From Marsupella aquatica (taxonomy: Eukaryota; Plantae; Marchantiophyta): DNA of 64,000 nt. The translations under genes and the position numbers were made by a program. Below are positions 19,880 to 49,177 of this stretch, in pieces. The notes beneath the pieces were generated by a model. The model saw only the letters and a program-made list of their open reading frames with translations, was not told where the DNA came from and did no database searches. The stretch covers positions 11,089,792-11,153,791 of the forward strand of contig OZ316894.1 in the NCBI GenBank assembly GCA_973895155.1, given 5' to 3'. Positions within the stretch are counted from its first letter, which is position 1, and each line of letters starts with the position of its first letter.

Positions 19880-20560
19880 ACCAGTGTCCCTCAAGTTGTG
19901 GGAGGACAAGATAGACACTTTTTGCCCACCGTTAACTTTGTTAAGAACTTTATTGACTAATTATTGTAACCTAGAAGCATCATTAGGGGCCGATTTTGGA
20001 GTTGAAGCCACCACTTTCCCTCTAGATATGGGAGGACGGAACAATCACTTTTTGCCCATTGTTTAGAACTTTATTGACTAATTATTGTAACCTAGATCCA
20101 CCAGGTTTTGCTGGGATAACAATAGCAGGTCAAACCACCATGGTCCCTAAAGCTATGGGGGGACAAAACACTCACTTTTGTCCACCTTTTTAATTTGGTA
20201 AGAACTTTATTGACTAGTTATTTTAACATAGATCCGCCAGGTTTTGCTTGGATGAAAATGGCACTTCAAACCACCATGGTCCATGAAGCTCTTGAGACAT
20301 CCATTTTTAGCCCACTTTTGTTGTTGTGAAGAACTTCTATTGACTAATTAGTGTTACCTAGATCCACCAAGTCTAGGAGACACTGACAGTTCAAACCTCC
20401 ACTATCCCTGACGCTGTTAGAGGGACCAGCTAAACACTTTTTGCACCCTTTTTACTTTGTCAAGAACTTCATTGACCAATGGGCTTCTTGTCCACTTTCT
20501 ACTTTGTGAAGAACTTTATTGACTAATTAGGGTGACTTGGATCCACCAGGAGTTGAACCT
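19880..20560. repeat. Degenerate ~130-bp tandem repeat (about 5 units), with dispersed copies near 13760, 19345 and 19470
   Basis: Recurring core AGAACTTTATTGACTAATTATTGTAACCTAGATCCACCAGGTTTTGCT. Confidence 0.75.
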
Positions 20561-23500: not shown

Positions 23501-24271
23501 CAACTCTTGGGCAAACTTAACATGCCTTGGGGGGGGGGGGGGGTTTCAGTCCAGTTTTTTTGTTTGAGACAGGTCACAACACTTGTTTGCAAGTTATCTA
23601 AGCATCATCAAATTTTGAAATCTAGTCATTTTTTAAGGGTGGTGGAGATTGTTGAAGAGTGATGATGCACTTGTATGGCCGAATTTTTTGGTGCAAATGC
23701 TGGCGCACTAATTTCCCAAGTTAGTGGCCGTATAGATTTTTAAAAACCACACAATGTTTCCTGCAATGGGGCCTGCAACATTCCAATTGCGTAAAACATC
23801 CACAAAATACAAAGTTTGAGACAGCCTTATGTGATTGATTCTCATCCACCAGAATTCAGAGAAAGGAAAGGATGCGGCTCTCTCAATGTAGTGCCAAATG
23901 TACAATGTAGGGAGAACTTGATGACAGAGTATCACCAGTAAACAATTCACCCATATTCTGATTTGGTGGATTGTTGCGGTTTTTATTAATATTCCAATTT
24001 AAGTCACATCGCATTATCCAATCCCCAAACAATCAAATTAATGTGATTGGACCGAGATTGGACTTGTCCAATTGATCTAGTATTGGAAGACGCATTTTGA
24101 TTCAAAAGAAATGGCAAAAATGTTCTGATCATTTGAGAATGGCATAACCATTTCCAAGTATTTCCAGATCGGGAATAATTGTGCTATCGTGCTACTATTG
24201 GCCAAGGGGTCCCAATTAGAATCAAATTGGAAAATCATGAAAAAGTGAGCTTTCAAGAATTTACCCCAATG

Positions 24272-24602
24272 TGTAGGATCGAAACGGACAGCATGACGTC
24301 TCATAATCGTCAGTCATACAACACTCCGGTACACCGACACAAAGATACGTGGTTCACCCCATCTGGGCTACGTCCACGGCCGCACCAAGAGCTTCACTAT
24401 GAACATGAAAAGTACATATCACCATAGCTCCATGGTCCAAGCTCTCTCTCTCTCTCTCTTTCTCACAAAGTTCTCAACTAAGTGTTCTCTCTCCATGGGA
24501 CACCAAGAGGGTTATCCCTTCATGAAGAGTCTAGTCAACTAATATTAACTCTGGTTAACTAACTCTAGTTAACCTAGCCAAGGTTGAGTCAAAACCCTAA
24601 CA
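24272..24602 (-). repeat. Copia-1 3' LTR (331 bp)
   Basis: TGTAGGATCG...CCCTAACA, nearly identical to 29769-29867 joined to 39240-39471. Confidence 0.95.
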
Positions 24603-24615
24603 AACTCCCCCTTGA
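24603..24615 (-). other. Copia-1 polypurine tract
   Basis: The minus strand reads TCAAGGGGGAGTT immediately before the 3' LTR. Confidence 0.85.
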
Positions 24616-24635
24616 CTCTAGCCTTGAGCTAGCTG

Positions 24636-27600
24636 CTATCCTTCTGAAGCTAAGATCTGCAGTGAATTGCAATGTCTTGCAAAATCACCATGAGGGATAA
24701 CCTTGGTTAACATGTCAGCTGGATTGAGTTTACCATCAATCTTGACTAGCTCAACCTTTCCTGCTGACACTGCCTCTCTGATGAAGTGATACCGAATATC
24801 AATGTGTTTAACTCTGCCATGTGTCATTTGGTTGGCAGCAATGTGTAAAGCACTATTGTTATCACAATGGAGAAGCACAATGCGTTGTGTAATCCCTAAA
24901 TCCTTCACCAAGTTGCTTAACCAAATTGCCTCCTTAGTTGCTTCAGCTGCTACCACATATTCAGCTTCAGTAGAAGACTGAGATATGCATTTCTGCTTTG
25001 TGGACCTCCAACTCACACATCCACCCGCAAGAGTGAAAGTGTATCTTGAGGTGGACTTCTTCTGGTCCAAATCTCCTCCATAGTCAGAGTCCACATAGCC
25101 AATCAATGATTCTGCATCTTCACTGTGTGCATCAAACAACAGTCCAACAGTAGAGGTTCCCTGCAGATAACGTAGTATCCACTTCACTGCTTCCCAATGT
25201 ATATTTCCTAGATTAGCCATGTATCTGCTCACCAATCCAACAACATGTGCTATATCGGGCCTAGTATAAACCATAAGATACATTAAACTGCCCACAGCAC
25301 TATCATAGGAAACCTTAGACATATGACCTCTCTCAATTGCATCTGTGGGGCAGGATGCAGCTGAAAGCTTAAAATGTGACGCCAAAGGAGTACTCACAGA
25401 CTTGGCGCTTGCCATATTGAACTTGGCAAGAACCTTATTAGTGTACTTACTTTGTGTCAACCACAATTTGCCATTTTGCCTATCCCTATGAATCTCCATG
25501 CCCAATATGCACTTAGCAGCACCCAAATCTTTCATACTAAACTCAGAGCTCAATTGAGCTTTCAGCTTAGTAATGTCAGATTTATTCTTTGCTACTATGA
25601 GCATATCATCCACATAAAGAGCTAGCAAGATAAAACCAAAAGTTTTATCATTCACTCTCTTCATGTATAGACATCAGTCATGCACACTTTGAATAAATCC
25701 AAGTGACAATAGAAAGTCTTTGAACCTCTTATTCCACTATCTTGGACTCTGTTTCAATCCATACAAGGATTTTAACAGCTTGCATACCAGATGCTCCTTG
25801 CCTCTTTTGACATATCCTTCAGGCTGTCTCATGAAGATCACCTCTTCCAGCAAACCATATAGGAAAGCTGTAACAACATCCATCTGTTCCAAGCAGAGAT
25901 AAAAAATAACCATAAGTGCCATGAGTAAGCGAAGGGTAGCTTGTGTGATCATTGGAGAGAAGACATCACTATAGTCCACACCTTTGCGTTGTGTAAAACC
26001 CTTGGCAACCAGCCTTGCCTTGTAAATCTTCTCCTCATGATCACTACCTTCTTTTTTCACCTTATACACCCACTTGCAATCAATTGCTTGCTTTCCTTGA
26101 GGCAGCTCTTCTAGTTGTCACGTCTTGTTGTCATAGAGTGACTTCATTTCCTTATTCATGGTGGCAATCCATTCTGGCTTCTCAAGGGAAGCCATGGCCT
26201 CTGAATAAGTGGACGGTTCTCCATCCTCAATGATCAACACATTCCCAGAATCGTCAGCATCTTCATCATCAATATCTATGTGATCAGATGGAAACCAAGT
26301 TCCAAATTGTGTAGGCTCCTTGTGAGGTCTTGATGAAGATCTCCTTGATGATTTTGGCACTTCAGCAATTGGTTCTGATGTTGCTGGTACTGGTGTTGGC
26401 GCTGACACTGGTTCATGAGCATATTCATGCTCAATCCTGTCAACATTTGGAGTTTCCACCATTTTCTCCCCCTCTTTCAATGAGGAAACCTCATTGAATG
26501 AGACATCGATGCCGACTACCAGCTTTTGTGCCAAAGGGTCCCATAGGCGATACCCTTTCACTCCTTTCTCATAACCAAGAAATATGCACTGCACAGACTT
26601 TGGATCAAGTTTAGTGCGTGATATTGGAGGCAAGAGAGCATATGCCTCATAACCAAACACACGTAGTTTGGTATAATCAGCAGGTCTTTGGTGCCACATC
26701 TCAAAAGGAGTCTTACAACCAATGCTGCTAACTGGAGATAAAGTTAGCAAATAAGCTATCGTATTAACAGCTTCAGCCTAGAAGATCTATGGAAGATCTG
26801 CTTGACTTAACATACTCCGCGAGTGCTCCAACAAGGTTTTGTTGAGCCATTCTACAACACCATTTTGTTGTGGAGTATACACATTGGTCAAATGTCGAGT
26901 AATGCCTTCATGCTCACAATAGAGGTTGAACTCGTTGGAAATATACTCACCACCATTGTCTGAGCGGAGATACTTCACCTTCTTTCTCGTTTGTGTCTCA
27001 ACCTGTGTTTTCCACAGTTTCTTGAAGATTGGAAATACCTCTGACTTCTCACGCATGAAATAAATCCAAATCATGTGTGAATAGTCATCAATAAATGAGA
27101 CATAGTATTTCATGCCTGAAATGGAAAAAACTGGGGATTCCCACACATCAGAATGAATATAATCGAGTATATCTTTGGAGGTATGATGAACAATGTTAAA
27201 ACTTACACGATGCATGCTGCTTGCCAAGAATACAATGCTGGCAAAATTCCAGCTTGCAAGACTTTGCACCGGGCAAGAGTTTCTGCTTACATAGCATCGC
27301 CAATCCTTGTTCACTCATGTGACCTAGTCGTGCATGCCACAAGCGTATCTGGTCCTCCTCTGATGAAACCACATTAACATTGCCAAGGATGGTGTCTCCA
27401 TCCAAGATATATAAATTTCCCTTCTTTTGGGCTTTCATGACATTGAGAGATCCCTTCTTCACTTGCAAAATGCCATCAACTGTACTCCACTAACATCTAA
27501 TAGTGTCCAAAGCTCCAAGAGAAATCAAATTCCTTTTGAGATGAGGAATATGTTTGACATTTGTTAACATTCAAAGAACGCCATCAGACATCTGAATTTT

Positions 27601-28563
27601 TACTGTACCCGTGTCAATTATCTAGCAGGGTTGATCATTCCCCATCAAGACACTTCCGGTAGTGGATTCATAGGAATGAAAAAAAGCTCTTGTCGGAGTC
27701 ATGTGATAAGAACAAGCAGAATCCAAAATCCAATCAAGTTCATGCACGATAGAAGAATCGGTGCACAAAGCAAATCCTTCATCATCAGACACAGCCAAAC
27801 TAGCCTGATAAAAAGCAATCTTTGGTTTGTTTTTGCAATTCCTTTTGATGTGGCCTATCTTGCCACAATTCCAATACTCCACACCTTTTGAATCCAAAAT
27901 CTTGGATCGAGAGCGTTGAGGAATTGATATTTTTGGTTTAAATTGACTCTTTGTTACTGATAAAGTAGAAGAGGAAGCATGAGAGGTTACATGCATTTTC
28001 TTCCTACTATCATCCGTAAGAAGAGTGCTCACCGTCTCATCATAGGAAATCTGATCCTTACCATAGAGTATGGTCTGAGTCAAATGCTCGTACGATTTGG
28101 ACAAGGAGATAAGAAGAAACAAAGCTTTCTTCTCGTCTTCAACTTTTTTATCGAGAGTGGCCAACTCGGACACTATCAAGTTAAAGGTATCAATATGATC
28201 GGCAAGTTTTGTACCTTCCATCATGTGCAGTGTCATCAACTTCAAAGTAGTGTATAAGAGAGTTGCCAAGAATTTCTTTTGGTACATCTGTTTGAGTCGT
28301 TCCCACAGCTTTGTCGGTGAATCCTCAGTCAACACTTGGAGTAGAACATCAGATGCCAAGTGCAACCGGATTAAGCTGAGAGCTCGTGCACAGATGTCCT
28401 CCCAATCCTCCTCAAACATTGCCGATGGTTGACTTTTCAATGCTGCGCCCAAACCTTGCGAAACTAACACGTCTTGCATTTGAACTTGCCATAGCGTAAA
28501 ATTATTGTGGCCGGTAAACTTCTCCACCTCATATTTGGCACTAGTAACTTTTGATGGAGCCAT
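24636..28563 (-). pseudogene. Copia-1 gag-pol (Gag, CCHC, protease, GAG-pre-integrase, integrase, RT, RNase H), disrupted by stops and frameshifts
   Basis: EKFTGHNNFTLW; WILDSACSYHMT; LWHARLGHMS; YLRSDNGGEY; TPQQNGV; [12 protein letters not shown]; LYGLKQSPR; LYVDDMLI; GYVDSDYGGD; SSTEAEY; KHIDIRYHFIRE. Confidence 0.95.
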
Positions 28564-29754
28564 TGTACACCCCTAGGACCTTGAAGTGCCAAAAATCACT
28601 TTGCAGCTTCTCAATTTCACGCAAATTTGCACAACAGCACATGGCAGCACGACAACATCAACCACAAAATGACAAAAAATGAAAGTTGCTGAAATTGAAA
28701 TCCAAGAGCACTCCTGGGTACCCTAGAAGGTATCGGATTTTGTCCCAAAATCCGTTTGGCAAAAACATCTCAGTTGAGATATTTTTACCGCCGAGTAAGA
28801 GGGGGTCAAAACATCAAAATTGGACCCCCGAGGAGAATCAATTCACTCAAATCCGCAAGAAAAGTCGGTTTGACAAATAGTTTGCACAAGCCCCTACTCA
28901 ACTCCCTCAAGTATGCCCTTGCAAAATATTGTGTTGATACAACATCGAATGATTTGCCGAAATTTTGATTCCGTCGCAAAAATGAGCTTGCTGGAAAAGT
29001 ATATTTTCCTTAAATTCCTGCAACCCTTGTACAGGCCTTGTGGGAAATTTTTCAGAGCTGCCCAAGGGCTGCCACGTGCCCTCTTGGCCCCCTCGAACCC
29101 CCTATCACCCCCCTTGACCCTTTTTTCGCGTCTGCGCGCCATCCCGGGCGAGTAAATACTCGTGACAGACTTTTCCCCCGGTGGGATATCTAAGATATCT
29201 TTTTGGGGTTTTAACAAAAAGAAAAACTGATTTCAGATTCTGAAACTAGACTTCAAGGCGCTTCAAATCGATATAAAGAACTCTGAAAACGGTGAAGAAT
29301 TGAGGGAGATAGAATTCAATTAAGATCACTGATTTTGACCTAGCCACCATAGCCGGGAATTTCGAGCTCAACTCAATCCAAGAGTTCTTCGTGACAACTC
29401 AATGAAACACATTGATTTCTTCACCACCACATTCCATAGCAACACCACTCGCACCAACTTTCCTTCAACGATCATGAATGTCTTACAAGAAACCAAAATC
29501 ATATCACGGAAGCCACGTTCCCCTCGGTAATCAAGTCGAGACCTCAAAAACCGTCAAAAAACCGTCTTATATAAAGATTAAAATTGCTCAGCCATATGTG
29601 AACAATCTCTCGACTAAACATGCAAGTTTCTACTCCATAAACCTCCTTATCCGATCACCACTTTGTATGTCAACGTTCACACTTCCATCGTGCCCCCAAA
29701 AATTGTCAATCAATCACAATAAACCGTTAAGACATCAGTTGATCCCGAACCGAA

Positions 29755-29766
29755 GCTCTGATACCA
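29755..29766 (-). other. Copia-1 primer-binding site (tRNA-iMet)
   Basis: The minus strand reads TGGTATCAGAGC, 2 nt inside the 5' LTR. Confidence 0.9.
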
Positions 29767-29768
29767 AT

Positions 29769-29867
29769 TGTAGGATCGAAACGGACAGCATGACGTCTCA
29801 TAATCGTCAGTCATAGAACACTCCGGTACACCGACACAAAAATACATGGTTCACCCCATCTGGGCTA
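29769..29867 (-). repeat. Copia-1 5' LTR, PBS-proximal part (remainder at 39240-39471)
   Basis: Matches 24272-24370 up to TGGGCTA, where the nested element begins. Confidence 0.95.
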
Positions 29868-30196
29868 TGTCACACCATTTAGAGTGGTAGTAAAGTATAT
29901 CGTACTATCTAGGTATAGAGGTTTTGTATGTGTGCTACATGAGCACTATGTTTAGTTTGAGTTGGTGTGAGGGATAGTTATCCCCTTGTGTTGGCTCAAA
30001 GGCCTCATCTTTCAATGTTGAGCCTTTGAGCATGAGCTTGGTGGCTATGGTGTAGCTGACCAGGTTGTGTACATGTAACGTGGATTCCTTGAAGCACAAG
30101 GTGCGTTGGGCTTGACATACATGTGTGATCGCGTCGGATGGGATCGTTGTTGGATTAGCATCGATCGTTGTTTGATTTGCACTATTGAAGAAGATT
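29868..30196 (+). repeat. Split direct repeat A1 (329 bp)
   Basis: Near-identical to 38781-39109 (about 8 substitutions counted by eye, mostly transitions). Confidence 0.95.
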
Positions 30197-30698
30197 ACAT
30201 TGAAAGATCAGCTTCGAATTCTGATGTACGGATCGTGCAAACAGAAGTTTGATTTCGTTGAGGTTTAGTTGTTGACGATTCGTGGTATCTCGGATTGGGT
30301 TTTGTTGTTGAACGGATCGCTGGTATCTCGATCTGTTACAAGTTGGTGTTGAGAAAGCTCGAGTGGATGCGGAGCTTTGAGTTGTTGAGTTGCGCGTTTG
30401 GAGTTGCGATTTGCATCGATCGACATTGCAGCATTTTGGAGGACTGAATGTGCGGTTGATGATCGGAAGTTGCCATCGATTGTTATGCGCGGATTGCTAA
30501 GAGTATTCGCTGCGGTTTTGTGAAGGCAAGTTGGTCGGACTTGTGATTGTTTGTGATTCTGGTTGGGGATGGTTCCAATCGGGGGTTGATAGTTGAAGTT
30601 GTATCTTGCGGATTTGAGATTTGTCAAGCTTAATGTTGACGGATAGTGCATTTCTTTGAAGAAAGCGACATTGGATGTTGACGAATTGTGTCCCCTAT

Positions 30699-30744
30699 GG
30701 CGACGTAGCGCACCGCGGAGAGGCGACGTAGTGCACCGCGGAGA
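30699..30744. repeat. 23-bp CpG-rich tandem duplication in the gypsy leader
   Basis: GGCGACGTAG(C/T)GCACCGCGGAGA occurs twice. Confidence 0.85.
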
Positions 30745-30859
30745 GGCGAGGTGCAGCGATGACCTAGGGCACAAGGAAAACGACAAAGTGAGTGAACAGT
30801 GACTTTGTCCGGGAATTGCGACGGGGTTTTCGCAGCAATAGGGTTGTGAAGGTCTTCCA

Positions 30860-31336
30860 CGGAACATTGTTCCGTTGAGAGGGCATATTGGAGATTGGTT
30901 GACTGCGGAACACCGTTCCATCGTGGTAGTTTTGGGAAGATTGGTCTTCCACGGAACACTGTTCTGTTGTGAGTGCATATTGGAGAACGATCGGGTACAG
31001 ATTACCATTTTGTTGTGATAATTTTGGGAAGATTGGTCTTCCACGGAACACTGTTCCGTCGTGGGTGCATATTGAAGATTGGTCTGCCCCATTACACGTC
31101 TCATCTGCGTTGTGAAGAAGGGTTGGTTGCGGAACATTGTCCCGCAACTAGGCAGCTCACGGAACACTGTTCCGCCAATTAGCTTGGCTATTGGTGATGG
31201 AGGGTTGCAGAACATTGTCCCGCAACTAAGCAGTTTACGGAACACCGTTCCGTCAATTGTCTTGGAGATTGGTGGTGGTGCATTACGGAACATCGTTCCG
31301 CGATTGAGTGATGGGTATCCGCGGAACACCGTTTCA
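30860..31336. repeat. Array of ten 15-bp palindromes CGGAAC-NNN-GTTCCG in the gypsy 5' leader
   Basis: Copies start at 30860, 30906, 30952, 31044, 31130, 31160, 31208, 31238, 31286 and 31322. Some carry 1-3 mismatches. Confidence 0.9.
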
Positions 31337-31389
31337 CCAATCGGTTGATTATTGATAGTGGTGAGTTGATGGTGACCATTTAGGGAAAA

Positions 31390-32781
31390 TTGGTCATCAC
31401 GGAGTCCTCTGGTGATACGGGGCTACCCGAGGGACGACGGTCTGGTTTCACTCGAAGTGGAGTGCAATTTTGGCCGACGACATTGTTAGTGGTTACAAGT
31501 GGGGTTTCAGATAGTGATTCTGATGAGGACTTAGTAGCCAGTTCTCCTCAACATCAAGTGACTGTGCCATTGTTGTGGGATATGGAAGAGATGTATGGGG
31601 CCACGAAAGGACCGAGGAGATACTCTGGTGCAGTTGGCACGATTGATTTGGATGATTTCATCCAAGAGTTTGATACGTGGTGTGATATGCAGACAATGCG
31701 TAATGCCACATTGTTCACACCTTTTATGGCTTGGAAAGGGTTGTTTCAGCATTTGGAGGGGCCACCCATCGATGACTACCATGAGTTTTGAAAGGCTCAT
31801 TTAGTGGATATTGAGGCATGGAGACAGCATTGGTCACCAAACTATGTGTCCATCACTTATGGCACAAGTGCGGTTGCCCAACCCATTGCTACAACTGCGG
31901 CTTCTTCTAGCAGCACTAGCTAGAGTGGCACTCCATCAACATCCACCGCTACTCCTACCGGTGTGATTGTGGCTGGGAGTGGAGCTGCGCCAACATTTAA
32001 CCCTGTGATGAAGTTCTTTGAAGTATTGAAGCAGAACTACCAGGGTTTGAGAACCGATAAGTTGAAGGGTCTTCAGGAGTTCCAGCGCAAGACTAGAGAG
32101 AGCCTACGTGAGGCATACACTCGTATGCGAAGGTTGATTATGGTCACACAAGGAGTGACAGAGGCCCAAGCGGTCCAATTTTGGTATGCAATTCTGGATA
32201 GGGAGTTGCATCGTAGAGTGAGAGATGCCACTCTATTGAGGGATTCAGATCCCACATTGGCTATAGTTTTTGCACTTGCTGAGCGCATTGAGCTCAATAT
32301 GGTGAATGAGATGGTGGTGACTTCCAGATTTGGCAAGGAAGCACCAAAGGTTGCATCAACGCCCACACCGCAACCTACTGCACGTAAGAGCCAGAGAGAG
32401 AAGCCTACAACACGGGAATCTACTAGTCAAAGACATGTGCCTTCTTATGCTGGACAACAGTCAGGATGTTGGACTTGTGGTGGGGATCATGCACAAAGAT
32501 ATTGCCCGGATAATAGGGGGCAAGGAGGGGCATCTACACTTGATCAACGATAGTGTGATCATTGTGGAGTTTTTGGACACACCAAAGATAGGTGTTTTGT
32601 ACTTCATCCTGAACTACGACGGGGAGGACCACGTGCGTATGATCAGGGAAGAGGAGGTAGAGGTGGTGGACGTGGTCGAGGCATGCCACATGCAGGAAGA
32701 CAGGGAGGTGATGTTGCTCCTACCATTACCACAGATCCTAAGGATGCAAAGATTGCTCAATTGGAGTAACAACTAGCTGCA
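31390..32781 (+). pseudogene. Gypsy Gag with two zinc knuckles, in-frame stops
   Basis: LDDFIQEFDTW; FQRKTRESLREAYTRMRRL; CWTCGGDHAQRYC and CDHCGVFGHTKDRC. ORFs starting at 31390, 31963 and 32782 share one frame. Confidence 0.8.
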
Positions 32782-33459
32782 ATGGCTAGTTCTCAAGTTA
32801 GACCTACTGCTAGTGATGGAGCTTCTACATCCTATGGAGCTTCAACCTCTTATGGAGCTGATGAAGATCTTGCCACCATGGGATTTATGTGTGGCACTGC
32901 GCATGTGAATGCATCAGCAGCTTTAACTCGAGGAGCAGCAAAAGCCCTTGAGCCTAGAGGAGCAGTGGTAGAGTTGGATCCTCAGAGAGGGGATATTCGT
33001 CATCAAACGAAGCTTCCCCAATCGTTTACATTGTTAGAGGTAGTTCAAACTACCTCTATGAATCCGGTTCGGACTAACCCAGGTGGGGGTAAGTTGGCGG
33101 ATTCAAGTGATGTTGTGACAGGGATGACAAGTACCATGTTGGGGGCGGCCACTACTATACTGCGCATGCCATTATTTTCAGCTACGGATATGTTAACATT
33201 GGGAGTTAGTCCAGCAGAGGTGTTCAGATTGGCGGCCACATTATGCGAGGACACTCCAGCTGTTGCTTCGCGTGCAGAAGCAACGCCCAATTCTGAAGCA
33301 GTGGAGTTGAATCCACCTATTGCCAGTAATGAAACATGGCATGCAGCAGCGGCAAGGTTGATAGATTTACCAGCGCGCCCTGCTTATGAGAGGACTAGGT
33401 TTAAACCTAGCGTCATATCATTGGATAATCGGAGTGGTATCTTCCGATTAGTTGGGCCT

Positions 33460-33810
33460 TCTGGAGCAATATACCAGCCAGAGCGAGTGTTACTAGATAT
33501 TGGTGCTCAGCCCTTGATGTTGGGTAAGTCTGCAATAAGAGGATTAGGATTGCGTCCTGATGATTTGGAGTGTCCCTTTCCCATTCAGACTTCATTGGGA
33601 GGACCTACACCCACACAGCATATCACTCGACAAGCACTTGAACTTAGGATTCAGGAGGATCATTCAAAGGATAACTCACGGATCCAAGCTCGAGCTATTT
33701 TGACTAAGGCTGAGTCATATGATGTCTTGGTGGGATATACAGTTCTCTATCCTATGGGATTTGTTCTTGATTTTTGGAATGAATCGGTGTCATATCGATC
33801 CGATTGGCAA
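33460..33810 (+). pseudogene. Gypsy aspartic protease domain
   Basis: VLLDIGAQPLMLG (a D[ST]GA variant) at ~33487 and C-terminal YDVLVGYTVL. Confidence 0.75.
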
Positions 33811-34200
33811 TCTGGAGATGCTCGATTGAGCCAATTGCCAGTGCGATTTAGTGGACCTATTGGAGGCCCCAAATTTGCACCATTATCTTTGGCAGCATTT
33901 AGTAGTTTGATTACTGGAGTTGATGATTTGATTGAGGGTAACGCACATGCAGCAAATGTTCCTATGGTGGAGGAGACACATGAGGAACACTTGATGCATG
34001 GATTGCCCATTGATAGTGTTGTGACACCAGTATGGGGTACTGGACAGGCCTTGCCACAAAGTGCGCCCCGATTGATACATGATGCATGGCGTCATACTTT
34101 TACACCGCAATCAGGAGCAGAGCAGTCAACTGCAAATGGACCGGTGACTCTTTCACCACTGGATACTACTCCTATTGCATGGCAATATCCACATGAGGGT

Positions 34201-35160
34201 ATTTGTTTGTTGGATTTATTTGGTGGAATTAGCACTGGATTGGCTGCCATTCTTCAAGCCGGCATTCCTGTGCGCCGTTATTTGTATGTGGAGACTGATG
34301 AGACAGCACGTAGAGTCTCATTACGTCATGTGGCATTGTTGGTCAAACGTTACCCACAATTGTTGCCCGTGGATGCCGTTCGTGGTTATCAACATGCATT
34401 GCCAGCTGATATTTCATTGTTGGGGGCGGATCATCTGGATCGCGTTGGCCCCATTGATTTGGTGATTGCGGGTTGGCCATGTCAGGGTCAATCTAGAGCT
34501 GGAGTTGGACATGGACTTCATGATCCAAGATCTGCATTGTTTTGGGAGATGTTACGGGTGTTGCATCATCTTCAGTTGCATCAGACACATTCCCTTGCCT
34601 ACATTTTGGAGAATGTGCCATTATTGGGTGATGATCGTCATTGACTTGTTGCCAGCGTTCATCAGGTTACTTAAGTTTTGGATTGGACCTGCTGTGTTAT
34701 TGGATGCTGCACGTGTGGGTTCTCGTGCACATCGTCCACGCTTGTGGTGGACTAATTTGTTACCTTGTGAGGTGTTGAAGCGAGCATTTGATAGCATTCC
34801 TCACTCAGCAACCTTGGTGGTGGATGATATTTTGGATCCAGGGCGTCGTGCACAAGGTGTGATCCAGCCTGACAGACCTCCATTGGCAGTGGTCAATGTA
34901 GTTGGTCGCCCACGTTGTGCATTACCCACTTTTGTGAGTCATTCTGCTTCATATGCATTCAGAATAGGTGGGCCTGGACTTGTCTGGGATACAACTCTAC
35001 AGCAGTTAGTGGAACCTACTGCTGATGAAAGAGAGCGTGCTATGGGATTTTTGACTGGCACTACTGCGGTTGCCTCTGTGTCAGAGAGTTCATGCCGCCA
35101 AGTCCTTGGTCAAGCCATGGATTTGAATTGCTTGACTTGGATTATCAGCTTGGGATTAGC
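34201..35160 (+). pseudogene. DNMT3-like C5 cytosine DNA methyltransferase domain embedded in the gypsy polyprotein (one stop and one 4-bp insertion)
   Basis: Motif I LLDLFGGISTG; II YVETDE; IV DLVIAGWPCQG (34471-34485); VI YILENV (34609-34617); VIII LDAARVGSRAHRPRLWWTNL; IX-X ERERAMGF...RQVLGQAM. The order is colinear with DNMT3 catalytic domains. Confidence 0.93.
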
Positions 35161-35499
35161 TGAACAATTGCGGATGCGCTCTTTTGGTGTTACTGATCGT
35201 CCATTGGTGAGCTTGCGGTCTACTAAGACAGTAACGACCACAGTTGGGGGTGAGCAGACAGTCCATGGACCTATGGCAGGATTGGCCAAGGTAGGACAGA
35301 TTGTTGAGCAGGTTGGGACTGCTCAAATTGTTGCTAAATAGCAACCACCGACTATCTCTTCAACCCCAAAGGAAGACATCACAGCTTTGATGGAGAGTTG
35401 GGAGCCACAAATTGGCCCTAAGTTGACAGGGGATGAGAGACGTCGAATGCATCAATTCTTGAAGAGTTACTGGAATTGTTTTGCATTTAGCATGAAGGA

Positions 35500-36835
35500 T
35501 TTGGGAACATTGAAGGGCCCTGGTATTCAGATTGAATTGGCTAGTGATGCGCCAATCTTTTGACGACCATATCGATATAGTGATATGGAGAGGGCATTGA
35601 TCCGGAGTAGAACTTAGGATTTGTTGGAAGCTGGTTTGGTGGAGATTTCATACGGAGAGTATGCATCTGCCACAGTGATGCCAGCCAAGAAGGATGTGCA
35701 TGGCAATTACACGGATAGGCGAATGTGCGGTGATTATCGACCTATTAATCGTCAGACAAAATCTGATCGATATGCCATGCCCACACCGGAGGAGATCTTT
35801 GATGCAGTGGGGCATGCAAGGATTTTTAGGTCGTTGGATCTCAGGGCGGGGTACCATCAGTTGCCAATTAGGCATTCTGACAAGTCCAAGACAACATTCT
35901 AGGGGATTGATTCTTATGGCAAAGATCGTTTGTATCAGTGGTTGTTCTTACCATTTGGGTTGAAGAATGCACCAGCTGAGTTCCAGAGAGTCATGGATCG
36001 AATCCTTGCAGGTTTGGATTTTGTCAGATGTTATATTGATGATATTTTGGTTTATTCTTCTACTGTGGAAGAACATCAGAGACATTTGCAAATTGTGTTT
36101 GAGAGATTGAGGGAACATGGATTGAAGCTCCATCCCGGCAAGTGTAAGTTCTTTCAAGAGAAGATTGAGTATTTGGGCCACACTATCTACCTAGGAGGAT
36201 TGGGTGTGCAACAGACTAAGGTGGAGGCCATTACATAGATTCCTCGTCCTACTAATGTGAGCAGAGTTCGTGCATTCTTGGGATTGGCGAGCTACTATAG
36301 GAGGTATGTTAAAGGATTTAGCCAGCTTGCTAAACCTTTAACTATACTCACTAAGTTGGATCAGGAGTGGATTTGGGGAGACGACCAGGAGCATGCTTTC
36401 CAAGAGTTGAAGGAAAGACTGGCGTCAACACCTATTTTGAGAAGACCCATTTCAGGGTGACCATTTCAGCTTCACACTGATTGGAGTGGAGTAGGACTTG
36501 GAGCAGTGTTGACTCAGAAGGATGATGAGGGGAATGAGTTTGTTGTGGCGTATGCCAGTAGATCCAACAATTCAGCAGAGGCTAAGTATAGCTCTTATGA
36601 GGGAGAGTGTTTGGCAGCAGTGTGGGCTGTGGCACATTTCCGTTGCTATTTGTTTGGTAATTTGTTCACCTTGATCACTGATCATCAACCTCTCAAGTGG
36701 TTAATGGAGTCTGACAAGCTTAGAGGGAAGCTTGCACGATGGGCATTGTTGTTGCAGGAGTATGATTTTCAGGTTGTGCATAGACCTGGAAAAGTGAATT
36801 TGGATGCGGATGGGTTGAGCCGCAATCCATGTACC
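35500..36835 (+). pseudogene. Gypsy reverse transcriptase and RNase H
   Basis: RMCGDYRPIN; LDLRAGYHQL; PFGLKNAPAEFQR; YIDDILVYS; FLGLASYYRRYV; VAYASR; YSSYEGECLAAVWAV; TDHQPLKWL; ADGLSR. Confidence 0.95.
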
Positions 36836-37209
36836 AGTCAAGAGGATGAGACTGGAGCTCGATGGCATGATGAGACAGATAAGGAGATGGTGTCAGGATG
36901 GCATGCATCTGCTTTCCTTTGTTGGGTGCCAGCATGCAGTGGATCCGTACACTTTACTTCATTGGATGGAGTAGATGATGAGTCTTCAGATATGGATGTT
37001 GGTGATGTAGTTTTTGGACAGCAAGATATTCACAACGATGTGAGAGTGTTGGAATATTTGCATGGTGGCTCCATTGGTGGCAATGTTGATGCTAAGGAGC
37101 GTGATAGGGTTCTACAACAAGCCAAGAGATTTCAATGGCAAGGAAACCATCTTTTGAGGGTACTACGTGATGGGAAGGTGTTGGTTGTACCAAAACCGTC
37201 ACAACGAGT

Positions 37210-38310
37210 ACATTTGGTGCGACATGCGCACGAAGAGTTAGGGCACTTTGGTGTAAAGCGCACTTATAGCTTGCTGCAGACACAGTATTGGTGGCGTGGT
37301 ATGCACACTGATGTCCAACAATTGATAGCTAAGTGTGTGGTTTGTGATCGAGTGCGAGCATCGTTCAATGCTAGATCTCCCCAGTTGCATCCGCTACCGA
37401 TCATGGGTTTGGGATATCGATGGAGTTTGGACTTTGTTGGTCCATTGCCTCTTATCCAACGTCACAATCGGTATGTTTTGGTTATGGTGGAGCACTTCTC
37501 CAAATGGATTGAACTAGTGGCATTGCCAGATAAAGCTAGTGGAGGAGTGGCTACCATATTTTTGGATCGAGTACTCAATCACTTTGGAGCACCAGCTGAG
37601 GTGTTGACTGATTAGGGCACGGAATTCCGTGGAGATTTTGAGGGTTTGTGTGAGCAAGCTCTGATTGATCATCGTACTACTTCTCGCGATCATCTTGAGG
37701 CAGATGGATTGGCAGAGAGAGTTGTACAAACTGTGAAGAGAGGATTGCGTAAGTATGGCTTGCAGGTTAGTCATTTGGGAGACTGGGATCTTCAACTACC
37801 TTGGTTAGCTATGGGCTACCGTTTTAGTAGACAAGCATCACTTGCATCCTTTTCACCTTATTTCTTGCTCTATGGTAGAGAACCAGATTTGCCAGCGGCT
37901 ATTCGTCGTGATGTTGAAACTGTTGTGGATTTGGATGATCCAGATGTTTGGGTCAAGGTTTGTTCAGACAGGGCACGAGTTTTTGAGAGAGTCATGCCCA
38001 TGGCCTTTGACAACCTTGCTATTGCCCAACATCGTGATACTTTGCGGTATGCTACTATTCGTGGAGGAGGTTATCGCACGAGGATTAGAAGATTTTATCC
38101 TGGCGATTATGTTTATTTGCAGCAGACAGCACCAACGACGCTTGATGTGACCGCAGGGCGGACAATCTTACGTGTGCGTGAAGTGTTGCCTTCTGGAGTC
38201 CTTATATTGGAAGGACGTGATGGTATGGTTTGGAAGGATCATGTGCGTAATTGTGCGCCATGTCATCTTCCAAACATTGATGGTACTGTGGATCCAAGCT
38301 TGGCACATGT
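37210..38310 (+). pseudogene. Gypsy DDE integrase (HHCC zinc finger plus catalytic core)
   Basis: HAHEELGHFG...YWWRGM...CVVCDR; WSLDFVGPLP; VLTD*GTEF; ADGLAERVVQTVK; SPYFLLYGREP. Confidence 0.95.
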
Positions 38311-38325
38311 TCGTGCTGGCTTGAA

Positions 38326-38467
38326 GTGTATATTGTGTGGGTCTGCTCAAGGAGCAGCTACTATGTTGATTTGTGATCGGTGTTCTAGAGGATGGCACAT
38401 GTCGTGTTTGACACCACCCTTGCACATGATTCCTAGTGGATCATGGTTGTGTCCTCAATGTCGGTGA
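38326..38467 (+). CDS. C-terminal PHD finger of the integrase (C4HC3)
   Basis: CILCGSAQGAATMLICDRCSRGWHMSCLTPPLHMIPSGSWLCPQC lies in frame at the end of ORF 37646-38467. Confidence 0.92.
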
Positions 38468-38652
38468 TGCCGACTAGTTATCATTCGTGTTCTCATGGAA
38501 GATATAGATTGCAGGTAGGTGATCGATGGGGCTCACTTGCACCCGGCCTCCTGATCTTCACACCTAAAAAGGTGTATATCAACCTTGTAGAACTCATGGC
38601 TAGCTAGAGTTAGGGGACCTCACTTCCAGCTAGGGGGGCGATTGTGGGTTTT

Positions 38653-39235
38653 GGGCATGTATGGACATGGGTTCCATTTGTAGATCATTCTCTTAGGTTT
38701 GTGTCGTTAGATTGTGACTATGTTTGGATATGTGTGACAAACGATGTATGTTGTGTAGCGATGTGTATGTGCACGACAGCTATCACACCATTTAGAGTGG
38801 TAGTAAAGTATATCATACTATCTAGGTATAGAGGTTTTGTATGTGTGCTACATGAGCACTATGTTTAGTTTGAGTTGGTGTGAGGGATAGTTATCCCCTT
38901 GTGTTGGCTCAAAGGCCTCATCTTTCAAAGTTGAGCCTTTGAGCATGAGCTTGGTGGCTATGGTGTGGCTGACCAGGTTGTGTGCATGTAACGTGGATTC
39001 CTTGAAGCACAAGGTGCGTTGGGCTTGACATACATGTGTGATCGCGTCGGATGGGATCATTGTTGGATTAGCACCGATCGTTGTTCGATTTGCACTATTG
39101 AAGAAGATTGGGTATGTATGAACATGGGTTCCATTTGTAGATCATTCTCTTAGGTTTGTGTCGTTAGATTGTGACTATGCTTGGATATGTGTGACAAGCG
39201 ATGTATGTTGTGTAGCGATGTGTATGCGCACGACA
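38653..39235 (+). repeat. Right-end repeat block B1 (38653-38778) - GC - A2 (38781-39109) - B2 (39110-39235)
   Basis: B1 and B2 are 126-bp near-identical copies (about 5 transitions by eye), and A2 copies A1. A PPT-like AGGGGGGCGA lies at ~38632-38641. Confidence 0.95.
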
Positions 39236-39239
39236 GCTA

Positions 39240-39471
39240 CGTCCACAGCCGCACCAAGAGCTTCACTATGAACACGAAAAGTATATATCACCATAGCTCC
39301 ATGGTCCAAGCTCTCTCTCTCTCTCTCTTTCTCACAAAGTTCTCAACTAAGTGTTCGCTCTCCATGGGACACCAAGAGGGTTATCCCTTCATGAAGAGTC
39401 TAGTCAACTAATGTTAACTCTGGTTAACTTACTCTAGTTAATCTAGCCAAGGTTGAGTCGAAACCCTAACA
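39240..39471 (-). repeat. Copia-1 5' LTR, distal part
   Basis: Resumes at CGTCCAC, matches 24371-24602 and is followed by the TSD CAATG. Confidence 0.95.
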
Positions 39472-41569
39472 CAATGTTGCCCCCTGATCCTGGTCCTCCA
39501 TGGTTGCATGACACCATTCAAGGTAACTAGTGTGTTAGTGAATTGTTTGGTTTTTGTATGAAGCTGGTTGTGGTCGCCCATCCCAAATGCTACTTCTTTC
39601 ACCGTGTGCTTAACTTGCTAGTTCTTAGCTCTTGCATTGTACATGTAATCTTAGCCACATTTGATGTTTCTTATATAGTGTCTTGGGTTTTGAGTTCATT
39701 TAGAACCATAGTTTGGACCCATTCTTGATAGATTATTATGCATCATGACATTGGATTAATTCTTGCATGGCCTATTATCAAGGATCTATGCTGATCCGTA
39801 TGCCTTGATCCGTATCAGGAAGGACCTTGGCCTTGGCACGGGCCTTGGCAAAGGTTCCAATTCAAAATGAGTTGCAAACACGCTTACAATAACAAAAGAA
39901 TTGGACCACCAGGTCCGTTTCACCAACAATCAGACCAAGATCCCATTCTATCTGGATTGCAAATATGAATTCCATTTCCTAGCACTAGGAAACAATTGTC
40001 CAATCTTGCAAAACTTGGAATATATTACCAATCACTTTTGTCACGAAGACACCTTTTTGCTTAATTTCCCATTGCTCAACAAAAGATCCAATTCAATCCA
40101 CATTGAAAACTTCCAATTTGTGTTGAATGGCAACATACGATTATAATTTGATTGGAAACACCTGCTTAAGCTTTTCTTTGGAAAGGGGTCTTCGATTCAA
40201 TCAGGATCGGAGAAGAATTGGACCAAGCAATCCAATTGTTTTTGGCCTGGACAAGCAATCCAACATTTTGTAAATGACAATGATGGTTTGTTTGTGATTG
40301 GGTTGGAATGGTGATAGGACTCCAATTGTAATTTAATGGCAAAGTCCAAGACGCGTTAAATTGGACGGTCAGGTCGTACATCCAATTATAATAGAATCAT
40401 AAATCTTGGCATAATTGGAAGATGAGGATTGGACCAAGCCCCAAAATGTACTAGTGTATTCCACTGACCATGTAGAATCAGATCAATGCTTTAGAGAAAT
40501 TGTGCTTACCATGTGTTTTGATTTGTGTATCACCAAATGTAACAAATCACCAAAGGTCTTGTCCACTACAATTCTTTATTTGATAGCTATCTTGCAAATG
40601 TGCCTCAAGCGGGGCCTCAAATTCAATCCCACCAAGTTGAATTCTGAATAGAATGTCCATTCAAGTCAACCATTTTCTACTAACATGTCCCCCAATCGAT
40701 TGTAATTTGGTCTTGAATTTGGCACATAATTACCTAGAGTTTGGTAAATGTTTTTGTGTATTTTTGTGGATGTAGCCTTTGGTGAGGTGAATCACTTATA
40801 TCTTGTATAAACTACTTGTGTGTTTGTTGTATGTTGCACATGTGCATGTTGTCTTTGAGTAACAATCATTTACTCAACAACTTTGTGATTCAATTAATAA
40901 ATTAGTTTTTGAGAAATATAGTGCAAGCTCGGATTTTGTGAATAGTGAGTGATGAGCGATCATGACATCTCACAAGGAAAGGGGGGGTTTGGCTATGGTG
41001 GAGTAAACACAGATGTCCCATATTCCACATAGTGTCATCCCTGCCAAATTCTCCTAGCCAAGAGCTATACGAAGGAGCTGGCCCATAGGGAACCCAACCT
41101 GAGTCTTGGTGAGTTGACAACTCTTAGGGTAATATTTTTAATCACACATTCTTGGGCTCAATTTACTTTAAATGTGTGATTCAATGCTCTACATATGTTA
41201 GGCTGTGTTTCTAGCTAACCTATTTACTTCTATAGTACTAGTTAGGCTTCAGTAGACTAGGATAGCACGTGGTTGAATTCAAGGCTCCCAATAGACTATG
41301 GGAGAGGGCATAGGCAAGGGAAATACAAACTTGTGCGCACACATGAAGATTCATTCTCTAGAAGCTAAAAGTGAGAGGGTGAGAGGAGGCTGGAGCTCTA
41401 GCACATTGGCGGTGGCGGGTGTAAATTTTGTTTTATATTATTGGATTCTCTCATGACCGTGGATGCCTAGACGCAGTGAGAGATGTGCTTTCAATGCTGT
41501 TATTTAAATGGATGTTGTTCATATGTGTTGGCGCTGCCTTGTTTGGTCTAGATTATTTCCCAACAATTT

Positions 41570-41914
41570 TGTTGAGCATAGACGACATTCGCAACTGCAA
41601 GCCCATGAACCATCCAACGCACAAGAGTTGACACAGAGAGATACGTGGTTCACCTCCACATGAGGCTACGTCCACGGGAACACACAAGAGCTTTACTGCA
41701 CTCTAGGCCGATCGGCGATACCAAGCATCCACAACGCAAGCTCTCCCTATCTCTCAACTAGCTCCGTAACAATGAGCCTAAGTTCCACTAGGGGCTGGCA
41801 CCAGCCCTTGCAATATACACAATAGCACTACCGCTAACCTTAGCTAAGTCCTAACGCAAGTTAACCTAACTGTGGTTAGCTCATGAGTCACAAGACTAAG
41901 AGCAATACCTAACA
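41570..41914 (-). repeat. Copia-2 3' LTR
   Basis: Direct repeat of 48836-49177. Confidence 0.95.
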
Positions 41915-42110
41915 AAATCCCCCTTGACTCTTGTCTTGGGGATTGGACTAATTGCTACCATATGGAATCCTCAGTGGGAAGTTTTAGACAATCACCTAAA
42001 CAGGTCTCCCCCTAAAAACCACAAGGGTTAACTAGAACTAAGCCGTAGCCAAACTAGAATGAGGAATCCATATACAAATAGTCACACATTGCTAAATAAC
42101 TCTACTTGCA

Positions 42111-45100
42111 CTACAACTGCAAAACCTGCAAAGTAGCATGGTGTCTTGAGAAACTCTCCAAAGGAATCACTTTGGTAAAGGCATCAGCGGGATTGAGCTT
42201 TCCATCAATCTTGACTAGCTCAAAAGTTTTATCAGACACTGTTTTCCTGATAAAATGGTACCTGATATCAATGTGCTTCACCCTGCTATCCATCACCTGG
42301 TTAGCAGCCAAGTAAAGAGCACTCTGACTATCACAGTTTAGAGACATTTTGCCATGCTCTAAACACATCTTCGCGATCAACTTATCTAACCAAATTTCTT
42401 CCTTTGTTGATGTTGCTGTTGCAACATATTCCGCTCCAAGAGTAAACACAAACCCAGTTGTAGACCTCCTTGTATCCAGACAGCCTCCATAGTCAGAATC
42501 TACATAGCCAACTAACGTTCTATCTGATCTGGCATCAAATAGTAATCCATAGTCCTGTGTTCCCTTCAGATACCTGAGAATCCATTTCACAGCTTCCCAA
42601 TGTGCCTTCCCTGGATTTAACATAAATCGGCTAACCTTGCCCATCGCTAGGGCCAAGTCAGGCCTAGTACAAGTCATCAAATACATCAGACTGCATACTG
42701 CCTTCTCATAAGGAATCTTAGCCATCAAACCTTTCTCCATGACATTCGTAGGAGAGAAAGCCGATGATAACTTGAAATGTGAAGCTAAAGAAATACTCAC
42801 TGGCTTACAGTTTTCCATGTTGAATTGTGCAAGTACCTTCCTTGCATACTTGCCTTGACTCAAGCACAACTGTCCAGTATCAGAGTTCCTAAAAACCTCC
42901 ATACCTAAGATCCTCTTGGCCTTACCAAGATCCTTCATCCTGAAATTCAGAACTCAATTTCGCCTTGAGATTGTCAATCTCAGATTGATCTTTAGCCACA
43001 ATTAGCATGTCATCCACATAGATAACCAGAATGATAAATCCAAACACATCATTCTTGACTGATTTCATATACACACAAGGATCATACACCATCCTTAACC
43101 TTGAGCAAGCATGAAATCATCAAATCGCTTGTTCCACTGTCTGGGAGCTTGCTTCAATCCATACAAGGACTTGAGCAATCTGTAAACAAAGTTCTCTTGG
43201 CCCTTCTTCATAAAGCCTACTGGCTGTCGCATGAAGATAATCTCTTCCAAGTTGCCATAGAGAAAAGTAGTAACAACATCCATCTGATCCATCACCAGAC
43301 CAAAAAACACAACAAGTTGACACAAGATCCTTCTTCCAAGATCAAAGTCATATCATCATCATCGGGTGCAATGTCAATATCATCTAGCTTAGATGAGTCT
43401 GCCCATTGACCATACCTGGTAGGAGATCTAGTAGAACGACTGGAAGTTCTTCTAGTAGATGATTCAGGCTGATTTGCTGCTGCTGCTGGAAGAATTTGAG
43501 GTACCCCAGCAACTATCTGCTCCTCTTGTTCCATCACAGGAACCAGCTCCATGCCCGGAGCTTCTCCATCTCTCCTGTCATGAACATCATCATGACTAAT
43601 CTCCCCCTCAACCCGGTCCGGGATGGGAGATTTCTCCTTGTCAGTATGGGAGTCCTGAGAACTCTCCCCCTCCTTTGATGATCTGGATTTATTAAAGGAC
43701 ACATCTCTACTTACAATTAGTTTACAGGTTACTGGATCCCATAACCTATAACCCTTCACACTTTTCTGATAGCCAAGGAAAATGCACTTCTTTGACTTGG
43801 ACTCCAACTTGGATCGAAGTTGGGAAGGTGTAAGTACATAAGCATCATATCCAAAAATCCTCACATGTGAGTAATCTGTTGGACGCCCGTACCTCATTTC
43901 TAATGGCGTCTTGAATCCAATAGAACTGGATGGAGAAAAATTTACCAAATAAGCTGTAGTGTTGACAGCTTCAGCCCAAAACTCATGTGGTAAGCATGAT
44001 TGACTCAACATACTCCTCGAACGTTCCAATAGTGTTCGGTTGAGTCTTTCAAAAACACCATTTTGCTGAGGAGTAACTTGTTGTGAGATGGCGGGTAATC
44101 CTCTGCTCCTTATAATACGTTCTAAATTCACCGGAACTGTATTCATTGCCATTATCCGATCAAAGATATCTCACCTTATTACCAGTTTGATTCTCAATTT
44201 GGGCTTTCCACTCCTTAAAAGTGGCAAAAATATCAGACTTATTGTATAGAAAGTATATCCACACATACCTTGAGTAATCGTCTATGAACGTGACATAGTA
44301 TAACCGTCCAGAGTATGAGGGAGTAGGGGCTGGTCCTCACACATCACTATATACATACTCAAGTACCTCCTTGCTAGTGTGAGTTCCAACTCCGAAGGGT
44401 TTCCTGTGCTGCTTCCCAAGCACACAATGCTCACAGAATTCCAACTTACAAGATTGCAAATTAGAAAGTAATCCCTTTTTCTGAAGAATAGCCAAACCTT
44501 TTTCACTCATGTGGCCCAAATGGAAGTGCCACAGCCGGGCCGTCTCCTCATGAGATAAGGTTACATTGGCTTCATCACAGACTATATTGCCCTCCAAAAC
44601 GTATAGATTTTTATGTCTCTTTCCCTTCAATACAACTTTAGTACCAGTTGAAACCTGAAGGACACCATTAGCAGAACTCCATCGATGGCCATTTTCTTCT
44701 AAAACTCTAAATGAAATGAGATTTTCCATCATGGTGGGAATATGTTTCACATTGCTCAACGTTCTCACAACACCATCAAACATCTGAAATCTAACAGATT
44801 CAAGTCCAACTACTTGACATGAGAAATCTTCCATTTCCCATCAACACTGAACCGTTGGAAACCATGTAAGAACTGAAAAAATCTCTCCTAGAGCAAATAT
44901 GAAAAGTACATGCACTATCCAGAATCCAGTCATCACTACCTGGATTGGACACTACATTGAGAGCATAACCTTGGCATCACAATATGTCATCATCATCGAG
45001 TAAATCTACCTCATGTGTGTTTGATGCCGCATTAGCTGATGCGGTAGGGTCCTTTACTCAACAATCCCTTTTCATGTGGCTAGGCTTGCCACATCTCCAA

Positions 45101-45840
45101 CATGCAAGAGGCTTCCTCTCTTGCAATTTTCCTCTGGATTTAGATCTCCCCCATGATGTAGATCTAAATGTGTTCTGCCCATTCGTGCGTTGCGCTAGTC
45201 TTCCATGGTTCATATTCAGCGCAGTGCCAAAAGAAGATGCTGTCTGTGCTTGACCCAGCTTCTTCTGAGCATCATTAGACAGTAATGAGCTCACCACCTC
45301 ATCATATGAAATGGACTTCAGATCTCTGTACAAGAGCACTTGTTTCAAGCCCTGATAAGATGGCGGTAAGGAGCTTAGCAGAAGCAAGGCCTTATCCTCA
45401 TCTTCAACTCCCTTACCCAGATTTGTCAGACCACCGCTAGACTGTCAAACTCATCCAGGTGATCCTACAGCTTGCTCCCTTCCTTGAGCCTGAGGCTCAT
45501 CAAGAGAGCCTTCTTGTACAGTCGGTCTGACGCATCCTCCCGGTAGTACTTCTCTCTTAGAGCCTTGAACACTGACGCGCAATCCACATAATCATCCAAT
45601 TTCTTGATGATGTGCGGTTTGAGATAAAGCATCACTGCATTGACAGCAATCACCTGCTCTTGTTTCCACTGCTTCTCAGAGATCTCCTCCTCTCCATCAT
45701 ACTGCTCTCGCAAAGAGAGCAGATGAGCTAATCCCATGGCCCGGAGAAAACCCTTCACTTGTTTCTCCCACAACAAGTAATGAGTACGACCATTGTACTT
45801 CTCCACCTCAAACTTTACTCCTCCAAATCTCGCCATCTCT
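42111..45840 (-). pseudogene. Copia-2 gag-pol, disrupted; the RT N-terminus is deleted near 43325
   Basis: FEVEKYNGRT; CWRCGKPSHMKRDC; LWHFHLGHMS; TPQQNGVFERLNRTL; LYGLKQAPRQW; GYVDSDYGG; KHIDIRYHFIR. The YKARLVAKG block is missing at the IN/RT junction. Confidence 0.92.
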
Positions 45841-48835: not shown

Positions 48836-49177
48836 TGTTGAGCATAGATGGCATTTGCAACTGCAACCCATGAACCATCCAATGCACAAGAGTCGACAGA
48901 GAGAGATACGTGGTTCACCTCCACATGAGGCTACGTCCACGGGAACACACAAGAGCTTTACTGCACTCTAGGCCAATCGGCCATACCAAGTATCCATAGG
49001 GCGCTGTCCCTATCTCTCAACTAGCTCCGTAACAATGAGCCTAAGTTCCACCAGGGGCTGGCACCAGCCCTGGCAATATACACAACAGCACTACCGCTAA
49101 CCTTAGCTAAGTCCTAAACTGAGTTAGCCTAACTGCGGTTAGCTCATGAGTCACAAGACTAAGAACAATACCTAACA
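48836..49177 (-). repeat. Copia-2 5' LTR
   Basis: Direct repeat of 41570-41914, adjacent to the PBS. Confidence 0.95.

Follow-up and report, generated by a model that had tools for sequence, protein, structure and literature searches.

PAT, TOC1, Ngaro and VIPER elements carry split direct repeats in the order A1...B1-A2-B2, the joined ends also being present as an internal copy (PMC4157794; here and below, statements on cited papers refer to the accessible parts of those papers). A comparable arrangement has been reported for an element with a Gypsy domain set: according to the Fig. 4c legend of de Mendoza 2018 (PMC5890265), KnitGypsy-Dnmt3 of Klebsormidium has repeats arranged as in DIRS elements and domains of the Gypsy type. 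The order A-coding-B-A-B is spelled out in the same paper for Symbiodinium elements, the K. nitens element being given the DIRS arrangement. We analyzed a 64,000-nucleotide stretch of the genome of the liverwort Marsupella aquatica (hereafter, the window; assembly GCA_973895155.1, contig OZ316894.1, forward-strand positions 11,089,792 to 11,153,791) that contains, at window positions 29868–39235, an element of the structure A1-internal-B1-GC-A2-B2, i.e., A...B-A-B. Like KnitGypsy-Dnmt3, whose layout is available by description, this element combines a Gypsy domain set and a C5 DNA methyltransferase (DNMT) in the polyprotein with DIRS-like repeats. Unlike PAT, TOC1, Ngaro and VIPER, it has a DDE integrase, a protease and, across its family, diverse 4-bp target-site duplications, it lacks a tyrosine recombinase, and its reverse transcriptase is closest to that of Ty3 among solved structures. 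Its likeness to these four elements is probably convergent.

Neither a target duplication nor a palindrome, a PHD finger, a mode of priming or a mechanism is given for KnitGypsy-Dnmt3 in the accessible text portions of PMC5890265. In a 2026 preprint the group is called Gypsy-DNMT3, and the accessible part has nothing further on its ends (10.64898/2026.05.21.726589); the accessible main text on REXdb has no mention of PHD or methyltransferase (PMC6317226). No published mechanism and no permuted or split gypsy LTR (long terminal repeat) was found in the literature covered, Repbase and most subscription papers being outside the search. The internal attachment site, the self-priming and the end-joined junction described below thus appear to be undescribed in searchable papers, the layout having been noted once. 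The original prediction for this locus, made from the sequence without database searches, had called the system overlooked; this holds only in part, since the Fig. 4c legend states the layout for a Gypsy element (PMC5890265).

We propose, with a probability that we put at roughly 0.7, that these elements undergo standard self-primed reverse transcription, that the integrase opens a palindrome within the 5' LTR and inserts the opened ends with a 4-bp stagger, and that the true cDNA ends are joined to each other. In a broader form, which we favor slightly less firmly, they would represent an old LTR lineage of green plants whose attachment site has moved to the middle of the LTR and which inserts only by cutting the palindrome, the cDNA ends being end-joined; integration of the circle type would be its main path, and it would have converged on PAT and Ngaro elements without a recombinase. 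Insertion through integrase opening of a mid-LTR palindrome, if true, would be unusual among LTR elements.

Structure of the element and its insertion site

All features of the element lie on the + strand. Its left terminus, A1 (29868–30197), begins with TGTC, and 321 of 329 bases match between 29868–30196 and A2 (38781–39109), which was delimited by this match. The 3' end of A1 is placed at 30197 from the joint 30196>38641 of a sister copy, in which one letter is shared. B1 (38642–38778), the putative start of U3 in the 3' LTR, ends with GACA; its start is set by the polypurine tract (PPT) and the same A-to-B joint. Positions 38651–38778 of B1 match the right terminus, B2 (39108–39235, likewise ending with GACA), at 123 of 128 bases, and B1 reaches 9 bases further upstream than this shared B, up to the PPT. 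Between B1 and A2 stands GC (38779–38780), and A2 meets B2 in a TT microhomology with ~10 nt lost. Around the GC spacer lies an internal attachment-like palindrome (38775–38785), which has the family form GACA-GC-TGTC(A) and carries one G>A in the window copy, where A2 begins with TATC and A1 with TGTC. The original prediction of a 329-bp A, a GC spacer and the outer termini TGTC (29868) and GACA (39235) is confirmed, and the length of the shared B is corrected from 126 to 128 bp.

The element interrupts the 5' LTR (29769–29867 plus 39240–39471) of a Copia element on the - strand (24272–39471), which contains Copia gag, rve, SH3 and RVT_2 domains and what we take to be a Met-tRNA-type primer site at ~29755–29766. 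The intact sister LTR of this host (~24270–24602) carries one GCTA at the corresponding position and aligns ungapped over the insertion point only once the element has been taken out together with one GCTA. The copies of GCTA at 29864–29867 and 39236–39239 therefore represent a real target-site duplication, as clean as had been predicted. The host LTR pair is identical at 320 of 331 positions (96.7%), and its 11/331 differences are about as many as those between the element's own repeats. The window copy reads GACA-GCTA-TC at the B1/A2 junction; we rejected the match of this GCTA to the target duplication as the result of a chance G>A, relatives having TG there together with unrelated duplications.

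Recurrence of the layout in related elements

We fetched 87 related loci. The A-internal-B-A-B layout was found in six of them (L004, L024, L032, L036, L040 and L067), whose integrases are 49–71% identical to that of the window element; L025 is cut inside A2. Seven of the 87 loci have the form A-internal-B, five of these with duplications. Exact 4-bp duplications flank 10 of the 14 two-ended copies, the window copy included (binomial p about 2e-20), and there is no fixed target, because every 4-mer is different. The expectation that independent insertions share A...BAB termini and 4-bp duplications was borne out by these six full-layout relatives and ten exact duplications.

At the left, A stands alone in 18 of 18 independent ends, none of them (0/18) being preceded by B. 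Right ends, once duplicate loci recognized by their common flanks were removed, comprise ~23 B-only versus ~23 B-A-B ends. The A-internal-B copies would derive from one-LTR circles or from B-B recombination, between which the counts do not discriminate. Four public runs, each holding 41–50% of the element's words, were searched as well. Contigs whose sequence departs from B precisely at GACA, into flanks unrelated to one another, numbered 44, 23, 41 and 39 per run (agreement 0.36–0.38). Several variants of joints between the A end and the B start were found in these runs; among the 15 of 108 joints listed, the deepest one in the window's own family joins the exact A end to the exact B start (30196>38641), and rare forms may lie beyond these and beyond the 24 of 1890 loose ends listed.

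We conclude that the layout, the ends and the 4-bp duplication are real and family-wide. The decay of the window copy and its position inside another element would suit a one-off rearrangement, or an assembly artifact, of an ordinary two-LTR Gypsy element. This explanation, which we regard as extremely improbable, is refuted by the sister-LTR control, which proves the duplication, by sister copies whose contigs end at GACA, and by recurrence of the layout at independent loci of several families and in Klebsormidium; nor does an A-B-internal left end occur among the 18.

The contig depth over B was ~10x that over A and was not used, since summed contig depth is no copy number. A scan of viral contigs found no relative, and the GC-rich relatives L026 and L083–L086 had no readable ends. 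L048 and L053 have, 245–321 bases past the integrase end, a B-A-B end with an A2 of only ~80 bases, which fits, as expected, a large deletion at the joined junction.

Signals for reverse transcription

Immediately after A1, positions 30197–30208 have a perfect 12-nt complement within A1 at 30007–30018 (shuffle p=0.003), and the minimum-energy fold of the predicted leader pairs the two (z=-2.05 for the whole fold). We predict that 30007–30018 is the transcript start and the self-primer, and that 30197–30208 is a self-priming primer binding site; as the original prediction held, no TGG-type tRNA primer site is found there. The sequence of the site differs between related families but consistently matches the A of its own family. 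Of 17 elements, 13 have a self-priming complement of 9–17 nt at p<=0.05, its partner lying at position 140–185 of A, and several relatives have a TATA-like motif, read by eye, ~25–35 nt upstream of the self-primer site. At the other end of the internal region, the PPT (38632–38641) adjoins B1. A G-run adjoins B1 in the displayed relatives too, in the same register in 15/15 copies of one family.

The primer site after A1 and the PPT before B1 together mark B-GC-A as the probable LTR of reverse transcription; it has no conserved TG or CA at its ends. Judging from these signals, B-GC-A is likely made by self-primed reverse transcription, with the inserted copies being its permutation, and A1 would comprise, from the 5' LTR, the U3 end together with R and U5. 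The originally predicted hybrid strategy, split-repeat reverse transcription combined with DDE integration, is supported for insertion, which the diverse 4-bp duplications mark as DDE-type, and is not supported for reverse transcription, given the PPT at B1 and the self-priming site at A1.

Similar priming is known from Tf1/sushi (PMC7175516) and Tcn1 (PMC6317226), in which the initial ~11 RNA bases are complementary to the primer binding site and which likewise have a PPT and a DDE integrase. Those elements, of which Tcn1 belongs to the chromoviruses, have paired TG...CA terminal LTRs, whereas the present family has its attachment site inside the LTR and a PHD finger and a DNMT of its own. 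With the usual Ty3/Gypsy elements the family shares TG...CA ends, a 4-bp duplication within the 4–6 bp norm, and predicted primer-site and PPT signals, but its inserted copies lack two full LTRs, having A at the left and B or B-A-B at the right.

Two contrasting repeat junctions

At the B|A junction, the spacer is 2 bp long in all 29 of the 29 rows (27 once two duplicate loci are dropped). Eight of these rows are exactly GACAGCTGTCA, 18 differ from it only by C>T or G>A, and three include a transversion. The junction is kept although A and B probes of different families are mostly without cross-match. It forms the palindrome GACA-GC-TGTC, and the outer TGTC and GACA of the inserted element are its two halves. 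Cuts after CA on both strands of the palindrome would release two recessed CA ends with 2-nt overhangs, a form that an integrase can insert.

The A2|B2 junction, in contrast, varies: 15 independent copies belonging to one family display eight sequence types, with between 4 nt lost and 4 nt gained, while PPT|B1 and B1|A2 are constant in register in the same family. Most of the types consist of 0–4 bases of primer-site sequence (prefixes), and in another family PPT-side bases are retained at A|B in some copies. Placed on a tree of the copies, the A2|B2 type changes 10 times versus a null mean of 9.2, and pairs with the same junction are no closer to each other (p=0.63). Because the tree shows no inheritance signal, the A2|B2 junction is probably not copied from RNA. 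By their sequence, the A|B junctions look like end-joined cDNA termini.

The identity of the A1-B1-A2-B2 layout with that of PAT and Ngaro suggests another scheme, in which the RNA runs from A1 into B2, A|B is copied from RNA, and B1|A2 templates a circle junction that the DDE integrase opens. Such a scheme would explain without extra assumptions why A-internal-B-A-B occurs and its mirror form never does. We nevertheless consider it unlikely: the primer site at the end of A1 and the PPT at the start of B1 define B-GC-A as the LTR, the standard scheme with this LTR leaves B2 uncopied, and A2|B2 has indels, remnants of the primer site and PPT, and no inheritance on the tree. An RNA that must end in B2, as originally predicted, is unlikely too.

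A model for insertion through the LTR palindrome

In retroviruses and LTR elements, linear cDNA is the accepted precursor of integration, and LTR circles are side products. In the pathway that we favor, transcription would begin near position 140 of A1, and the initial 11–12 bases of the RNA would prime the minus strand after A1 in a Tf1-like manner. Plus-strand priming at the PPT would then yield a standard linear cDNA, (B-GC-A)-internal-(B-GC-A). The integrase would cut GACA-GC-TGTC of the 5' LTR after CA on both strands, leaving 2-nt overhangs, and would insert the cut ends, which are found at varied targets with a 4-bp duplication. The A end and the B start would be joined imprecisely, either in a two-LTR circle before integration or by later host repair, giving A-internal-B-GC-A-B. 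The products of this pathway are observed, and its intermediates are deduced from them.

HIV integrase cleaves the palindromic two-LTR junction in vitro, and two-LTR circles are able to feed integration (PMC1905944, PMC4372172), although LTR circles were long considered dead ends (PMC4372172). As in HIV-1 two-LTR circle cleavage (PMC1905944, PMC4372172) and in cleavage of the palindromic two-LTR junction of foamy virus, a DDE enzyme would here open abutted CA...TG ends within a palindrome. In the retroviral case, the cleaved palindrome consists of the joined cDNA ends and the reaction is a side path, whereas in the present family the LTR itself encodes the palindrome internally, and all copies examined terminate at it. 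Circle junctions of the IS3/IS30 type are opened in a comparable way by DDE transposases.

A route without internal cleavage can also be envisaged, with standard reverse transcription followed by formation of a linear A-internal-B-A-B molecule, by way of an additional switch of template, a dimer of the cDNA or a nuclease of the host, and by ordinary integrase end processing. It requires no new integrase activity and could explain the one-sided outcome, and ends of the type GC-TGTC...GACA-GC would be normal substrates for dinucleotide removal. We hold this route to be rather unlikely: the junction printouts, inspected by eye, show no second primer or PPT-like signal at the palindrome, and the fixed 2-bp spacer and the two-fold symmetry suit a site of paired-end cleavage better.

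Several points weigh against insertion through the 5'-LTR palindrome. A symmetric two-LTR circle has two equal palindromes, so the mirror form A-B-GC-A-internal-B would be expected equally often; it was found 0 times versus eight of A-internal-B-A(-B) (one-sided p=0.004), and an unexplained bias toward the 5'-LTR site is therefore needed. Such a bias could result if the 5' LTR became double-stranded first. The tree used to follow junction inheritance is nearly star-like and hence a weak test, and four of the 17 elements, all decayed copies, failed the self-priming test. Among the 14 two-ended copies, L032, L027 and L045 have no matching duplication, L040 has one with a single mismatch, and the right end of L067 was taken at an upstream sub-repeat picked by eye. 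Moreover, the relatives come from short-read metagenome contigs, and the circle, the cDNA end, the RNA end and the integrase activity are predicted from sequence.

If the 5'-LTR palindrome is indeed opened, the lineage would be a natural system for testing whether an LTR integrase is able to act mainly by opening an internal junction, in an IS3-like manner. It would also offer a simple path by which the split-repeat layout of PAT and Ngaro elements could arise from an ordinary LTR, and it may account for precise insertion ends in self-priming elements whose cDNA ends are ragged. Programs that search for paired LTRs will, as predicted, miss or mis-bound such elements, which carry their own DNMT, in liverworts and Klebsormidium; REXdb was assembled using LTR-FINDER, with paired TG...CA LTRs as a requirement (PMC6317226).

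The contig of one intact relative, L081, looks circular and contains a single B-GC-A, and collapsed repeats would look alike; neither it nor the permuted L005 was counted as evidence for real circles. In the genome behind L081, only the two contigs already found carry relatives. L081, L082 (genome G001) and L083–L086 are eukaryotic retrotransposon contigs inside prokaryotic genome bins, most likely through contamination.

Coding content

The window copy is a dead, decayed Ty3/Gypsy retrotransposon, with 10 premature in-frame stops and a frameshift in total. The first open reading frame (ORF), the broken ORF1 (31384–35341), comprises a gag-like region, an aspartic protease and the C5 DNMT; in Pfam searches the DNMT matched PF00145 (E=2e-9) and the protease match was weak (E=0.019). 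Four stops lie upstream of the DNMT region and one inside it, in addition to the frameshift, whereas the ORF1 region of the relative L005 is a single open frame. The broken ORF2 (35342–38467), with six premature stops, encodes a reverse transcriptase, RNase H, an HHCC-DDE integrase and a C-terminal PHD finger (PF00078, PF17917, PF17921, PF00665 and PF00628). The Gypsy order of protease, reverse transcriptase, RNase H and DDE integrase is thus present, with the DNMT between the protease and the reverse transcriptase.

In L005 and L081 the same set of domains is divided between two open frames, a single in-frame stop lying between these, and the best PDB match of the intact relative is Ty3 Gag-Pol (E=4e-98). 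In line with the original prediction, Pfam revealed no tyrosine recombinase, either in the 12 element frames scanned or in six ORFs from L005 and L081, which are intact relatives, and the rve integrase was found; neither was there a Pfam match to a chromodomain at the integrase end, where the PHD finger is located. The methyltransferase and the PHD finger would probably act on chromatin or in targeting. The DNMT and the PHD finger, like the PPT, the self-priming site and the decay of the copy, were absent from the original prediction.

At the border of ORF1 and ORF2, a stop codon in the context TAG-CAA-CCA (35339–35347) is a predicted readthrough signal. An in-frame TAG-CAR is found at this border in L004, L005, L016, L035 and L081, and TAA-CAA in L025. 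The TAG-CAR context fits the UAG-CAR-YYA readthrough motif of plant viruses. Conservation of the stop and of CAR suggests that readthrough may control the production of reverse transcriptase and integrase, with the gag, protease and DNMT part being made in excess. The 5' leader contains degenerate tandem repeats (30851–31336; repeat families D3–D6) with units of ~46/92 and 78 bp.

Relationship to other green-plant elements

Among named proteins, those of Calypogeia and Marchantia are closest, and those of Klebsormidium, Closterium and Chromochloris lie further out. PMC5890265 takes KnitGypsy-Dnmt3 as specific to K. nitens, whereas the nearest named relatives of the present element are these liverwort proteins. 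The window DNMT is 49–54% identical to that of L005, which in turn is 45% identical to that of the K. nitens polyprotein P0035. From its DNMT, reverse transcriptase and integrase domains, we infer that P0035 is a copy of KnitGypsy-Dnmt3.

In a quick tree with a weak outgroup and without Tf1 or Tcn1 references, the split-layout loci fell into two separate groups, one of them within a 40-row clade that includes K. nitens proteins. L005 and L081 were labeled 'BAB' by default in this tree, and in both only B-NN-A can be seen, with the primer site after it.

Other features of the window

A second Copia element lies on the - strand at 41569–49179, with 348-bp LTRs that are 92.5% identical, and fragments related to its LTR are found at 10737–11325 and 18414–18764. 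Stop-interrupted frames on the - strand at 6837–9239 resemble LINE ORF1 (zinc knuckle) by eye; the two frames scanned had no Pfam match at E<=0.001. On the + strand, 59197–62863 contains two long open frames of 342 and 841 aa, stop to stop, which have no Pfam match and are probably host-gene exons. A degenerate tandem array with a period of ~125–130 bases occupies 19394–20550.

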